This document shows, in pieces, positions 57,001 through 63,000 of a stretch of 64,000 bases of DNA. The DNA comes from Escherichia coli. Lineage in GTDB: Bacteria; Pseudomonadota; Gammaproteobacteria; Enterobacterales; Enterobacteriaceae. The DNA is taken from assembly GCF_048403405.1 (NCBI RefSeq), contig NZ_CP183129.1, one strand, 5' to 3'. Position 1 is the first letter of the stretch. Each line of letters begins with the position of its first letter. Made by a program: the position numbers.

Positions 57001-60000
57001 TCAGCCATCGGGAACTGCGGCCCAGCTTGATGGGGGCCGGAAAGGCCCCATCCCTGATGAGTTTGTAAAACCACTTATCGGTCAGGCCAGTCAGTTGAGT
57101 GATAAACGCCATGTCGACCATCTGGTCATCCATCAGTGAAACTGGGGTGGTCATGAGAATGTTCCTCCGGATGTTGTTAATCTCAACCGGCGTTGGTGAT
57201 GAAAACAACGCACCACCTTCACCGGCATAACAACCGGGGAGAAACGTAAAAAATAATCGGGAATGTGACCGTCAGGAGATAAACGGGGGGATTGCGGTGG
57301 CTGAGCCGTACCGGTATGTCGGGTGGTTGTTGCGAAACGATGCTTCCGCACGCGATAAAGGAGGGAGGACTTTCGTGAGACAAGGGGAAAACTAGCGTTC
57401 TGATAATTGCAGAGTTGTTTTTGAAGGCGGTTGTGGTATATCAGCCTGTGACCTGTGGGCAGGCGACAGTTATCACTGGTGGGATAAGACTGTCTGATTG
57501 GTATTATAAATATATAAGAGAGATCAAACACATGAGTTCATATATGTGAAATAAATCTGTGAGTGTGATCAGCAGACCAGTCTACCCAGTAGCAACAGAT
57601 TGCGTTGTACTCACAGGGTTATCCCTGATAACTGGCGTATAACCTGCGTACATAAAACGTACCTGCAATGCACCTGAACAGAGTGCATTAAGCATCCGCC
57701 TGAGCGGTAAACGTATCCGATCTGGTGAGTGACAGTCTGAGAGCATTCTCAGTAATCGCCCCCTTGTATCCTGGAAATTGGTTAAGAGCGATTAGATTTG
57801 GCAAGGTGTATGCATCCAGCAGCTTAACACCTCAGCTAACTGGCTGGTTACCTTCAGGTTGTCGCAATGGCATCGGACATCCGGTGTCGGATAACTAAAC
57901 GTAGCGTTAAGGCGATATTGCTGAGAGACCGGTTAAGTGGTGGCACGGGAGTAATGAGTTTGGGGAGGGTACCAGAATGCCAGTCAGGTGCGGTATGCTG
58001 GCAGTATCACGTTGATTGCAGCATAAAGTAACGAGAGACGAATGGAAGTTAAAACCAGAGCAGTTCCGTCGTTGTTCATCCCGGGAGACGCTGGAAAAAG
58101 TGATTACCCGCACACGTTATAAACTTACCCCTGCGGAGCTGGAAGCCTTTAACTCTGCGGTCGATCACCGGCTGGCAGAACTGACAATGAACAAACTTTA
58201 CGATCGCGTGCCGGCTTCCGTCTGGAAATATGTCACCTGAATCTTGAATCCGCGCTACGATGACTCTGGTGTTATCTGTGCACCGGAAGATCGGGAACAT
58301 TAAGCAGTATAACGGCAACAAAGAATTCGAAATCAAAAGGGAATGGTGTACAGAGGGGCAGGCGTTCAGGCATTACCGGCCTGTATCTTCTGAAGGGGAC
58401 TCGTATTTGTCGGGGCTGAGTATTCCGCTCGATTCGATCACGGATTGGCAGAAACCTGACTGTGATTGATTCAGGTACCATTTTGCAGGGATCCGGTGCG
58501 TTACTGTCTGGCACAACAAACGCAGCGGGTCGCTCTGCCCCGCCGACTCCTGATAATCCCTCCCCTGTAACCTACTGCAACAGTACAAATACACTGACGC
58601 CTGAAACGGTAACCAGAATCAGCACCAGCAGTAACGTCAGTAAACAGAGCAGACGATCGGTCTTCCGGTAATAACCGAAGGGGTCGACAGCACCACAATA
58701 CGGGCAACATACTGTATTATGAGTAATTGCGTTACCACAGTCCCTGCACTTCTTTTTGCGTATCACGATCGCTCCCTCTCCACGCCTTATCCGTAACCTG
58801 TTTTTTACATTAAAAAAACAACGCCGGGAATTCAATCGTCAGTCCGGCGATGACCGTTCGGGTTATCACAGAGTGCCTGAGACAGTGTCCTGCCGGAGGT
58901 CACCTCAGGGGCTCTGCGCATTTTTTACGACGTGGTTATTCCGTATGAACCATACGGAGATTTAACCATGACCTACAAATACAACCCCTTCTGGCAGCAA
59001 CGTATTCGTGAGACGGTGCGGCACGCACTGAATGTTCATCCCCGCCTGACGGCATTGCGGGTTGACCTGCGTTTCCCGGATGTACCGGCAGCAACGGAGG
59101 CAGCTGTGATATCCCGCTTCATCAATGCCCTGAAAGCCCGAATCGACGCTTACCAGAAACGTAAGCATCGGGAAGGTAAACGCGTGCATCCCACAACCCT
59201 GCATTACGTCTGGGCCCGGGAGTTTGGGGAGTGCAAAGGTAAAAAACACTATCACCTGATGCTGCTGGTCAACCGGGATACCTGGTGTCGTGCCGGCGAT
59301 TACCGCGCTCCGGGATCACTGGCCGGGATGATTAAACAGGCGTGGTGCAGTGCCCTGGGAGTGGATGCCGGACGTTATGACACGCTGGCACATTTTCCGG
59401 TCAGGCCGGCGGTGTGGCTGGAACGCGATGATGACACCGGCTTTCAGCAGGTGCTGGAGCGTGCTGACTATCTGGCGAAGGAGAGTACCAAAGCTTACGG
59501 CACCGGTGAGCGCAACTTTGGCTGCAGTCGTGGCTGAGCCCGACAGACGACTTATCTGACTTCAGTGTGATGACGTGTTCACAGCGACCACACTGATTTT
59601 CCCTTCTGAGACTGAACTGAAAACCGCCATTCACACCTGACCACGCTGCCCGTACCGGGACGGCTGTTGCCTGCGTGTCGTCTGGCGGTAAGGAACCACA
59701 CTATGTACGCAAAATCTTTTCTCGCACTTGATGGCAACGGACGTCTGACCGGTGCCCGTACCGCACAGACTGCTCCTTATGCCCACTACACCTGCCACCT
59801 TTGCGGCAGTGCACTCAGATACCACCCGCAGCACGACACGGAACGTCCCTGGTTTGAACACACTGACGACGGGCTGACGGAGCACGCGCAGCAATGTCCT
59901 TATGTCAGGCCGGAACGCAGAGAAATACGGTTGATTAAACGTCTGCAGCAATTCGTCCCGGATGCCTTACCCGTGGTACGTAAAGCCAGCTGGTACTGCA

Positions 60001-63000
60001 GGCAATGTCACCACGATTATTATGGGGAGCAGTACTGCACACACTGCCAGACCGGGCGCTTCAGTGAGGACGGGGAGCAGAATGAACGGTATAAAAACGG
60101 GGCTGGGGATCACGCCGGGTGAGCACATTATCAGTGCCGACTCTGCGCTCAGCAGAAATATCCGGCATTGTTTCTGCCTTTCCTGTCATGGCCGGTTGAT
60201 TCTGCAGACAGATGCTCAGGGGGCGTGGTTTGAGCATGATTTACATGCCCTGAGTGAGCAACAGAAGGGTAAGCGTGCAGCAAGAACCGTATTGACGGGG
60301 ATGTGTTATTCAGTCGGCAGTGCTACGCGCCAGGGGAGCAGTTCGCCGACCCGGTTTATCGGCCAGTCGGCTATGACGTCAAGGACATAGCGGAGGTAGC
60401 TTTCTGGCTCCACTCCGTTCAGTTTGCACGTCCCGATCAGGCTGTACAGCAGCGCTCCCCGCTCTCCTCCATGATCCGAACCGAAGAACAGGTAGTTTTT
60501 GCGGCCCAGACTGACCATCCGCAACGCATTTTCAGCGATGTTATTGTCCGCCTCAGCCCAGCCATCATCTGCATAGTACGTCAGCGCCGGCCACTGGTTC
60601 AGGGCGTATGCGAACGCTTTCGCCAGTTCTGAGTGTCGCGACAGGGTTTTCATCTTTTCACGCAGCCAGCTTTCCAGGGATTTCAGCAGCGGTTTCGTTT
60701 TCAACTGACGTTCGGCAAGGCGCTGCTCCGCCGTCATTCCCCTTATCTCTGCCTCGATGGCGTACAGTTCGCCGATCCGTTTCAGCGCTTCCTCCGTCAG
60801 GGCTGACGGGGTGCGAACGTGCACATCGTGGATTTTACGGCGGGCGTGAGCCCAACAGGCGGCTTCCGTTATCCGGCCATCCCGGTACAGCTCGTTGAAC
60901 CCGGCGTATGCATCCGCCTGCAGTACACCACTGAACCCCGCAAGATGGGTCTGCGGATGGATGCCTTTTCTGTCCGGGCTGTAAGCGAACCACACCGCCG
61001 GCGCCAGCGTTGACCCGGCGTTACGGTCGTCACGAACGCAGGTCCATAACCGCCCGGTCTTCGTTTTCTTATTGCCTGGCAACAGCACCGGGACAGGCGT
61101 GTCATCAGCATGGAGCTTACCGTCAGTCAGCACATAGCCATGAAGCGCCTCTTCCAGCGGAGACAGCTGCCGGCAGCATGCATCCACCCAGCCCGACAGC
61201 AGTGAACGGCTCAGCTCCACACCTTGCCGGCCGTATATTTCTGACTGGCGATACAGCGGGGTGTGCTCTGCATACTTCGAGGTCAGCACGCGGGCCAGCA
61301 GCCCCGGTCCGGCGATACCCCGCTCGATGGGCCGCGAAGGTGCAGGTGCCTGCACGATGGCATCGCACTGAGTACAGGCATGTTTTTCCCGTACCGTCCG
61401 GATAACCCGGAAGGCGCTACGCATCAACTCCAGCTGTTCGGCGATATCCTCGCCCAGATAGCTCAGTGAACCGCCGCAGTTCGGGCAGCACGGCGCCGCA
61501 GGCAACAGTCGCTTTTCGTCACGGGGTAGTGATTCAGGGAACGGCTTACGGGTGCGGGTCTGACGCAACGGACGCTGTACTGCCGGGTCATACACCCTAC
61601 CAGTCAGCGTATCGCTCTCTTTCTGAAGCCGGTTCAGATCGGCTTCCATTTGTGCGATACGGCGGGAGACTTTTTCGGAACGACTGCCGAAGTTCATCCG
61701 GCGGAGTTTATCCAGCTGCGCCTGCAGATGGTCTATTTCGCGCTCCCGGTTGCTCAGCTTTTCCTGCAGGGCGTGGATCAGCGCTTCCTGTTCGGCCAGG
61801 CGCTGTTTCAGCAGGAAAATGTCGTCAGAAGAGATGTCGTTCATACATCGTGTATTTTTCGCCGGGCATGGACCCAGCACGCAACTTCTGTCTGTGCACC
61901 ACCTTCACGTTTGGCACTGAACAGCCGATCGTAACCGCTGAATGCATCCGCCTGCAGGATACCCCGGAAGGGACGAAGGTGTTGTACCGGATGTTTTCCC
62001 TGCCTGTCTGGTGAGTAGGCGAACCAGACCGCCGGTGGCTCTGATGAGCCCGCATTCCGGTCATCCCGGACATACGTCCAGATGCGTCCTGTTTTTGCCT
62101 TTTTTCTGCCCGGTGTCAGCACTTTTACCGGTGTGTCGTCAGTGTGAACCTTGCGGGTGTTCATCACGTAACGGTACAGGGCATCATTCAGCGGAGTCAT
62201 TAACTGGCAGCACGCGTCAACCCAGTTGGAGATTAATGCACGGCTCAGTTCGGCACCCTGTCGGGCAAAGATTTCACTCTGACGATACAGTGGCAGGTGT
62301 TCGCAGTATTTTCCCGTTAACACGCGGGCAAGTAATCCGGAGTCCGCGATGCCGCGCGCTATCGGGCGGGACGGCGCTGGCGCTTCAACTATACAGTCAC
62401 ATTTTGTACAGGCTTTTTTTACCCGAACAGTGCGGATCACTTTCAGGGCGCTACTCACCAGTTCCAGCTGCTCAGCACTGACTTCACCCAGATAATCCAG
62501 CTCACTGCCACACTCCGGGCAACAACTTTCTTCAGGCTCCAGGCGGTGTATTTCACGGGGAAGATGTGCTGGTAACGGACGACGATGACGTGACTGTCGC
62601 AACTGGCGGGGAACCTGCGGGTCATCCTCACGCCCACTGTAACGATCGCTTTCCTGTTCGCGTTGTTTCAGTTGGGCCTCAGCCTGTTCAACCTCACGCT
62701 GCAGTTTTTCAGAACGGGTACCGAACAGCATCCGGCGCAGTTTTTCTATCTGGGCCCTCAGATATTCTATTTCCCGCTCCTCCTCTTCGATCTTTTCTTC
62801 GGCACGTGCCAGTGCAGAGCGCAGGAAGGCCTCCGTCTCTTCAACCAGACTCAGTTGCAGATCTCTCTGACGGAGGGCTTCAGCCTGCTCAGAGAGCAGC
62901 CTTTCCAGCTCAGTGATACGAATGAGGTATTTCCGACTCATGACCGTTTTTATAATCCGGCCATGACATTTTTACAACATTGTCAGTGCGTTAAGACGGG

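Follow-up and report, generated by a model that had tools for sequence, protein, structure and literature searches.

The region 59703-60390 of the window, by which we mean the whole 64,000-nucleotide stretch of Escherichia coli DNA analysed here (NCBI RefSeq assembly GCF_048403405.1, contig NZ_CP183129.1), very probably holds a tandem pair of paralogous small DUF7828 plus Zn_ribbon_11 genes. The pair belongs to the conserved backbone of tRNA-associated CP4-like genomic islands of enterobacteria, and its second gene has been cut by an IS66-family element. The feature is ordinary: RefSeq already annotates both genes, the second as a pseudogene, together with the insertion sequence, and Pfam has a family for each domain. 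The locus and its surroundings comprise the following features.

56948..57154, - strand: AlpA-like helix-turn-helix gene, island backbone (RefSeq 'helix-turn-helix transcriptional regulator').
58016..58240, + strand: hha-like gene, island backbone (RefSeq annotation, collinear record).
58968..59537, + strand: YagK/YfjJ 'inovirus Gp2 family' (Rep-like) gene, the upstream same-strand neighbour (Pfam, RefSeq CDS).
59703..60122, + strand: gene 1, an intact 139-aa ORF, 'putative zinc ribbon protein' (ORF, Pfam, RefSeq CDS, dN/dS).
59793..59897, + strand: N-terminal putative CCHC metal site of gene 1, C31-x2-C34 ... W50FEH53 ... C65 (conservation in the 37-member alignment A1).
59991..60047, + strand: C-terminal C4 zinc ribbon of gene 1, W97-x-C99-x2-C102-x9-C112-x2-C115 (conservation, Pfam).
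60075..60076, + strand: 1-nt deletion, seen by comparison with other island copies (DNA alignments against L003, L004, L006, L007 and L018; translations).
60082..60268, + strand: gene 2, truncated to its first 62 codons; the full-length paralogue is a 141-aa DUF7828 + Zn_ribbon_11 gene (Pfam, identity to P0214, RefSeq).
60269..60390, + strand: read-through from the truncated gene 2 ORF into the IS, a tail foreign to the original gene (homology to uninterrupted loci ends at 60268).
60269..63833, - strand: hybrid IS66-family element (ORFs, RefSeq of the collinear record, IS-only matches from 60269, end sequence).

The C-x2-C ... WFEH motif is present in both reading frames of the region, as an earlier note had reported, and its suggestion that the two modules are of a zinc-binding type and belong to one family is borne out by Pfam. 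DUF7828 (PF25165) is matched by gene 1 over the entire profile (107 bits, E 3.8e-31, positions 1-87 of 87) and by the gene 2 fragment over positions 2-62 of 87 (59.3 bits, E 3.1e-16), both above the curated cut-off of 25.7 bits for the whole-protein score. Gene 1 and a full-length homologue of gene 2 also match each other by BLASTP (E 2e-11, 31% identity across 83 aa). Because of these Pfam scores and this BLASTP match, the similarity of the two modules goes beyond chance. We also considered chance ORFs and rejected them, since the Pfam scores and the dN/dS values speak against them.

Gene 1 is laid out as DUF7828 (residues 2-87) followed by Zn_ribbon_11 (residues 94-123). The latter domain (PF11682) was assigned on a score of at least 24 bits together with the pattern W-x-C-x2-C-x9-C-x2-C; gene 1 scores 32.6 bits (E 6.2e-8, residues 94-123) and carries the pattern. 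The motif elements of the first domain lie at 59793-59804 (C31-x2-C34), 59850-59861 (W50-F-E-H53) and 59895-59897 (C65). Across the 37 members of alignment A1, all of which match both domains, C34, F51, H53, W97 and C99 are invariant, while C31, C65, C102, C112 and C115 are conserved in at least 90%. A CDS with the coordinates of gene 1 is found in the RefSeq records of DA33137 and CFT073, and PGAP calls it intact. Against four other island copies, the conserved part has a dN/dS of 0.05-0.21, and gene 1 is a real coding gene under purifying selection.

The majority of family members carry the signature C-x2-C-x13-17-[WY]F-x-H-x9-14-C, and the C-terminal tails vary in both length and sequence. 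Proteins with DUF7828 and Zn_ribbon_11 include WP_024198988.1, WP_001423036.1 (CFT073) and WP_000271011.1; RefSeq names them 'putative zinc ribbon protein' or 'DUF7828 domain-containing protein'. Gene 1 is a full member of this family, with both domains above cut-off and a matching position after a YagK/YfjJ gene, and differs from it by a lineage-specific frameshifted tail that is 12 residues longer. Gene 2 corresponds to residues 1-62 of a paralogous member, P0214 (141 aa), and differs from the family in that the IS66 insertion has cost it the ribbon and the final third of DUF7828. Many database entries of the family are fragments. A distant relative, P0160 (238 aa), is a naturally fused variant with an extra partial N-terminal module in addition to a full unit; it is not the ancestor of the locus in the window.

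Gene 2 has a start codon separate from that of gene 1, the ATG at 60082, inside an ORF that spans 59962-60390. Its motif lies at 60175-60186 (C32-x2-C35) and 60226-60237 (W49-F-E-H52), and the fragment is 96-97% identical to the N-terminus of intact P0214. P0214 has Zn_ribbon_11, which is deleted from gene 2 in the window: C32, C35, F50 and H52 are retained, while the fourth ligand Cys and the entire C4 ribbon are lost. With these losses, the truncated product should be non-functional. RefSeq records the same gene pair in CFT073, with whose type of island the window is collinear, and annotates the second gene as a pseudogene 'missing C-terminus'. The identical 102-aa read-through product, P0002, is represented in 233 sequences.

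That IS66 cuts the region, as the earlier note had also held, is confirmed at nucleotide resolution. Alignments with uninterrupted loci break at 60268/60269, the end of the element, and in other genomes a junction probe gives IS-only matches that begin exactly at 60269 and gene-only matches that end exactly at 60268. This junction is common to 705 of 5426 complete E. coli genomes. The element carries a full tnpC (60306-61880), a second, C-terminally truncated tnpC (61841-62941), tnpB (62972-63322) and tnpA (63319-63744); its ORFs and RefSeq names place it in the IS66 family, which is recognised by tnpA, tnpB, tnpC and terminal repeats starting GTAAGCG. One end reads GTAAGCGTGCAGCAAGAACC at 60269 and the other ...ACGCTTAC at 63826-63833, with GTAAGCG at 60269 and the complement at 63826-63833. 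The same end sequence recurs in numerous settings on chromosomes and plasmids, close to genes annotated as ISEc22-family.

The element shares its end and its gene set with the IS66 family. It differs from a simple IS66 insertion in combining a full with a truncated tnpC and in having ends of different sequence. There is also no 8-bp target-site duplication at its borders, since the 8-bp flanks ACAGAAGG and CATGTATC differ, and a search for a matching inverted repeat found none. Two IS66 copies make up this hybrid element, an arrangement consistent with later rearrangement. The landing of the IS66-family element after codon 62 inactivated gene 2. The 3' half of gene 2 was found nowhere in the window by blastn or tblastn; its later loss, presumably in an IS-mediated rearrangement, is suggested because the IS is a hybrid with mismatched flanks.

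The earlier note had gone further and read the two frames as the remains of one ancestral gene whose zinc-ribbon protein contained an internal repeat, a gene broken by a frameshift and later cut by IS66. Homologous modules do lie head to tail in different frames, a genuine 1-nt deletion does separate them in the lineage of the window, and P0160 shows a partial N-terminal module fused to a full unit. The intact homologues that the note had proposed to look for in other islands exist, in L018-L020 and in UTI89 (L005), and in them two genes, each with a start of its own, encode proteins of 127-133 aa and 136-141 aa (127 + 141 aa in L018-L020, 133 + 136 aa in UTI89). The overlap between the two genes is 4 nt (ATGA) in L018-L020 and 13 nt in UTI89, and each gene encodes the complete DUF7828 + Zn_ribbon_11 architecture. 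Two ORFs with the ATGA stop/start overlap are seen even in loci without the deletion. Since both ORFs start independently and each has a complete DUF7828 and C4 ribbon, the ribbon of gene 1 falls between the two N-terminal modules. The 141-aa form exists as a separate protein, P0214, which stands for 3198 member sequences. Reconstruction of the ancestral frame, also proposed in the note, gave no fusion: undoing the deletion brings back a stop codon. The single-gene model is already contradicted by these data, and we regard it as extremely improbable. The two frames are instead the normal frames of two coupled genes, because uninterrupted loci carry separately started, complete genes.

The deletion itself, at 60075/60076, is the sole frameshift in the window. 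It sits 13 nt 5' of the ancestral stop of gene 1, abolishes the ancestral ATGA overlap and changes the tail from ...SEEGVAE-stop to ...SEDGEQNERYKNGAGDHAG-stop, so that the protein grows from 127 to 139 aa. One could therefore ask whether gene 1 is also a decaying pseudogene, crippled by the deletion, and the whole locus non-functional debris beside an IS. The deletion replaces the last 5 codons and adds 12, other islands have copies of gene 1 or gene 2 with a frameshift or stop (L006, L007), and numerous database entries are fragments. However, every conserved residue and both Pfam domains are retained, and the change begins past residue 123, where the ribbon has ended. What is altered is only the C-terminal tail, an unconserved part that varies across the family anyway, and the two modules stay unjoined. 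Together with the low dN/dS of the conserved part and the PGAP call of an intact CDS, this makes decay of gene 1 an unlikely explanation; the favoured reading is still that of an intact gene 1 followed by an IS66-truncated paralogue.

The pair occupies a recurrent position in its islands. The upstream neighbour matches YagK_YfjJ_C (E 1.2e-47) and, below cut-off, REP_ORF2-G2P (E 4.2e-5). A same-strand DUF7828 gene lies at most two genes from Phage_AlpA in the E. coli loci as well as in the contexts of distant members that have flanking sequence (L009, L010, L012/13, L015-17 and L021-23), and a YagK_YfjJ_C gene was also detected in all of these except L021-23. The DUF7828 module is placed between the GTPase/DUF932/antirestriction/CbtA backbone and the variable cargo. 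In a study of Pseudomonas islands, intY, alpA, RadC and an inovirus Gp2-like protein were considered likely core element functions (bioRxiv 10.1101/2024.08.29.610337). Many island copies (such as L006 and L007) are interrupted by frameshifts or stop codons in one gene of the pair or in both, and the zinc-ribbon genes are therefore dispensable for the host. A promoter and terminator scan of 57900-60400 gave no sites above the level of shuffled sequence.

Each full-length protein would hold two zinc ions, the first in a CCHC site made of C-x2-C, the His of WFEH and the downstream Cys, and the second in the C4 ribbon, with a basic helix probably connecting the two. The AF2 model (pLDDT 88.6) has beta-hairpins at both metal sites; zinc binding by the conserved Cys and His residues is putative, from conservation and this confident predicted fold. 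As a best guess at their function, the proteins would be accessory or regulatory factors that depend on zinc and bind either nucleic acid or another protein. They would operate in the AlpA-YagK/YfjJ core module of the island, a module for excision, replication or regulation. With a family median pI of 7.5 the proteins are close to neutral, a charge that gives no particular hint of DNA binding. PDB sequence searches with gene 1 and the family profile returned nothing below E 0.02, viral models gave no significant match for the family, and PADLOC and NCBIfam gave none; PHROGs gave one weak match, of unknown function. A literature search by family and domain names (DUF7828, DUF3279, Zn_ribbon_11, PF11682, PF25165) found no publication, and the literature mentioning YfjJ or inovirus Gp2 does not discuss the zinc-ribbon genes.

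Two more specific roles can be weighed against this general one. P4 Delta, encoded by a P4-type element, consists of two Ogr-like units in tandem, and the proteins might be small zinc-finger transcription factors like P2 Ogr and P4 Delta, which would activate island genes through contact with RNA polymerase and would have no part in replication or excision. By functional analogy, Ogr and Delta are also small zinc-type proteins of P4-like elements. The present family likewise consists of small proteins with two zinc-type sites, resides in P4-like (CP4-type) islands adjoining AlpA, and recurs in tandem pairs. Yet the duplication at the window locus comprises two genes, whereas Delta is one fused protein, and no sequence or profile similarity was detected: Ogr_Delta is absent both from the 9 families matched by gene 1 at E up to 10 and from the 25 families most often matched by the 37 members, and no structural match supports the analogy. 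We consider a role of this kind improbable.

A second comparison is with the N-terminal domain of the competence protein CoiA, which has the pattern C-x2-C ... aromatic-F-x-H ... C in common with the DUF7828 family. CoiA_N (PF25164) is weakly matched by 14 of 37 family members, exactly over the CxxC...WFEH stretch (best E 6.9e-5), although all of these matches fall below the curated cut-off of 26.3 bits (the two inspected score 17.6 and 18.8 bits), and gene 1 does not match CoiA_N at E up to 10. In CoiA the N-terminal domain is followed by a PD-(D/E)XK nuclease domain (PMC1189080), whereas the C4 ribbon comes next in DUF7828 proteins; no nuclease domain was seen in Pfam scans of the family, whose proteins are just 127-141 aa. 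The resemblance, a weak tie to nucleic-acid biology, would indicate at most a remote domain relationship and not family membership. That DUF7828 proteins are CoiA_N-like nucleic-acid-binding zinc-finger factors, which together with YagK/YfjJ and AlpA control island excision, replication or transfer and whose paralogues form a heteromeric pair, is a speculative and rather doubtful proposal. If it were true, the islands concerned would be a large enterobacterial class with virulence and defence cargo, and the IS66 knock-out of gene 2 would, given a heteromeric pair, alter the mobility or regulation of CFT073-type islands.

For the window locus itself the significance is small, and it is the general interest of the family that remains. 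This family with two putative zinc sites is a conserved, uncharacterised part of the AlpA-YagK/YfjJ core in pathogenicity and defence islands that are widespread, and its role, once known, could help explain how such islands are excised, replicated or regulated.

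Two overlapping open reading frames lie in different frames on the plus strand of 59703-60390, a stretch that the earlier note had read as a single internally repeated zinc-binding gene, frameshifted and cut by IS66.

59703-60122, + strand: ORF 1 (gene 1), ATG at 59703, stop at 60120-60122, 139 aa
59962-60390, + strand: ORF 2 (gene 2), listed from 59962, conserved start ATG at 60082, stop at 60388-60390
60269-63833: hybrid IS66-family element with tnpA, tnpB, a C-terminally truncated tnpC and then a second complete tnpC

The N-module of ORF 1 comprises C31-x2-C34, W50FEH53 and C65, and is followed by a ribbon, W97-x-C99-x2-C102-x9-C112-x2-C115, matched by Pfam Zn_ribbon_11 at 32.6 bits. 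ORF 2 displays C32-x2-C35 and W49FEH52. Since these motifs are present and both products score far above the 25.7-bit Pfam cut-off for DUF7828 (107 bits, E 3.8e-31, for ORF 1; 59.3 bits, E 3.1e-16, for ORF 2), the module noticed in both frames is genuine and its similarity is not coincidental.

The proposal of one frameshifted, internally repeated gene is not supported. Uninterrupted loci representing the ancestral state (L018-L020) contain two separate genes of 127 and 141 aa with an ATGA overlap, and UTI89 carries an intact pair of 133 and 136 aa whose second gene is more divergent; intact homologues are thus present in other islands. The database protein P0214 (141 aa), which stands for 3198 member sequences, matches the 62 gene 2 residues kept in the window at 96-97% identity and has both DUF7828 and Zn_ribbon_11, while gene 1 and full-length gene 2 share 31% identity over 83 aa (E 2e-11). 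Because the uninterrupted loci hold two genes, P0214 has both domains and the paralogues retain this identity, sequence comparison identifies the locus as two tandem paralogues, each family unit comprising a complete N-module and C4 ribbon, and not as halves of one gene. We hold this anatomy, a tandem pair with an IS-cut second member, with high confidence. The feature is also ordinary and already annotated: E. coli DA33137 is collinear with the window base for base, and the collinear RefSeq annotation gives an intact 'putative zinc ribbon protein' at 59703-60122, a pseudogene 'putative zinc ribbon protein, missing C-terminus' at 60082-60267 and then IS66 tnpC. CFT073 is 99.5% identical over the stretch, and homologous DNA can be found in 3784 of the 5426 complete E. 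coli genomes.

Each gene has its own lesion. Alignment with five other copies revealed a 1-nt deletion between 60075 and 60076 that abolishes the ATGA stop of gene 1, changing the tail from ...SEEGVAE* to ...SEDGEQNERYKNGAGDHAG*, lengthening the protein from 127 to 139 aa and bringing the overlap with gene 2 to 41 nt. This change starts past the last conserved residue. Gene 1 keeps every conserved residue, and comparing the window with four other copies gives dN/dS values of 0.05-0.21 (Nei-Gojobori; dS up to 0.55). Gene 1 looks functional, though other islands contain disrupted copies of one paralogue or the other.

The claim of interruption by IS66 was borne out for gene 2, whose homology to uninterrupted loci ends at 60268 and gives way at 60269 to GTAAGCGTGCAGCAAGAACC..., an IS66-family end; the part of ORF 2 at 60269-60390 belongs to the IS and is a chance read-through. 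With a 120-nt junction-centred probe, IS-only matches begin exactly at 60269 and gene-only matches stop at 60268, and the complete junction is found in 705 of the 5426 genomes, which points to an old insertion that later spread along with the island. The element's far end is at 63833; its two ends differ from each other beyond GTAAGCGT, and no 8-bp target duplication surrounds it (flanks ACAGAAGG versus CATGTATC). The 3′ half of gene 2 was absent throughout the window, presumably lost through IS-mediated rearrangement, and the element looks as if two IS66 copies had recombined, or a deletion had formed between them, taking this half away as well. Two more IS66-family elements, one with a frameshifted tnpC and the other ISEc49-like, lie at 43551-48840, with the Ag43 gene on one side and a large hypothetical gene on the other; with at least four IS66-type copies in 20 kb of island, there is ample substrate for rearrangements. 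In a 139-aa database protein, P0210, the first 62 residues equal the window's gene 2 N-terminus (compare 60082-60303), the next 12 are encoded by the initial ~35 nt of the IS66 end, and the rest continues in frame with the C-terminal half encoded by a second gene of the UTI89 type. Such a protein may have arisen as a footprint of IS deletion or by recombination between the two gene 2 types.

An HMMER search run exhaustively over 1.84 billion representative proteins yielded only 173 clusters at E <= 1e-3, many of them fragments. Among 37 full-length members, C34, F51, H53, W97 and C99 are invariant, and C31, C65, C102, G108, C112, C115 and G118 reach at least 90% conservation. The two resulting signatures, C-x2-C-x13-17-[WY]F-x-H-x9-14-C and W-x-C-x2-C-x9-C-x2-C, suggest one putative CCHC site and one putative C4 site; the AF2 model is confident (pLDDT 88.6). 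A Pfam scan of these members gave weak matches to CoiA_N in 14 (top E 6.9e-5) and to DUF7830 in 13, though none to CoiA_N for the window's gene 1 product. As the inspected matches, all below cut-off, fall on the CxxC...WFEH stretch, they point to a remote relationship with the CoiA N-terminal domain. In CoiA this domain precedes a PD-(D/E)XK nuclease (PMC1189080), whereas the gene 1 product has no nuclease domain. The second gene of the L021 tandem pair (5001-5717; P0160, 238 aa), from a distant relative, has an extra partial CxxC...WFDH...C module fused ahead of a complete DUF7828 and ribbon unit; an internally repeated version does therefore occur naturally in the family.

In the window, the pair lies downstream of hha and of a Rep-like gene of the YagK/YfjJ 'inovirus Gp2 family', all in one orientation. 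Further upstream come an AlpA-like gene, YfjI, a YeeP-like GTPase, Ag43, DUF932, an antirestriction gene, a JAB-domain gene (RadC family in related loci) and CbtA/YeeU. Around distant members (24-30% identity) the same neighbours recur: same-strand Phage_AlpA and YagK_YfjJ_C genes, flanked on one side by the GTPase/DUF932/antirestriction/CbtA backbone and on the other by cargo that varies and in several cases includes defence-type domains; L015 and L016 also have a tyrosine integrase on the cargo side. Tandem pairs recur in E. coli, UTI89 and L021. In L021-L023 the pair directly follows AlpA and adjoins the GTPase gene, and no YagK/YfjJ domain was detected.

Other features of these neighbourhoods were observed. 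Between hha and the YagK/YfjJ gene, a small opposite-strand ORF (58572-58835, -) encodes a zinc-ribbon-like CxxC...CxxC motif and then a hydrophobic tail; RefSeq places a 65-aa 'hypothetical protein' at 58572-58769, with weak Pfam matches only (E 0.007-0.7). On one metagenomic contig (L010, 4458-7459) the module is duplicated either side of a YagK/YfjJ gene, each DUF7828 gene directly preceded by a 176-177-aa gene; the preceding gene in L011 is Pfam UCP030791, which suggests an alternative conserved partner. Directly downstream of the DUF7828 genes in the distant islands L009 (6641-9968) and L015 (7400-10320) are defence-type domain sets: an OLD-like TOPRIM/AAA_15 gene with a UvrD-type helicase, which we tentatively read as Gabija-like, and SMEK_N/CTD10, MC6 and DUF2326. 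The DUF7828 gene may be a marker for the boundary of a cargo hotspot.

One study of Pseudomonas islands names intY, alpA, RadC and the inovirus Gp2-like protein as probable core functions (bioRxiv 10.1101/2024.08.29.610337), and the Shigella SRL island has the same order of AlpA, Hha, YfjJ, an unnamed ORF and IS66 (PMC6980539). The median pI of the family proteins is 7.5, close to neutral, and a search by family names found no paper mentioning them, so any functional assignment is held with low confidence. From the recurrent AlpA/YagK-YfjJ context and these island studies, we tentatively propose that proteins combining DUF7828 with Zn_ribbon_11 depend on zinc and serve the core module of the island in an accessory or regulatory role.
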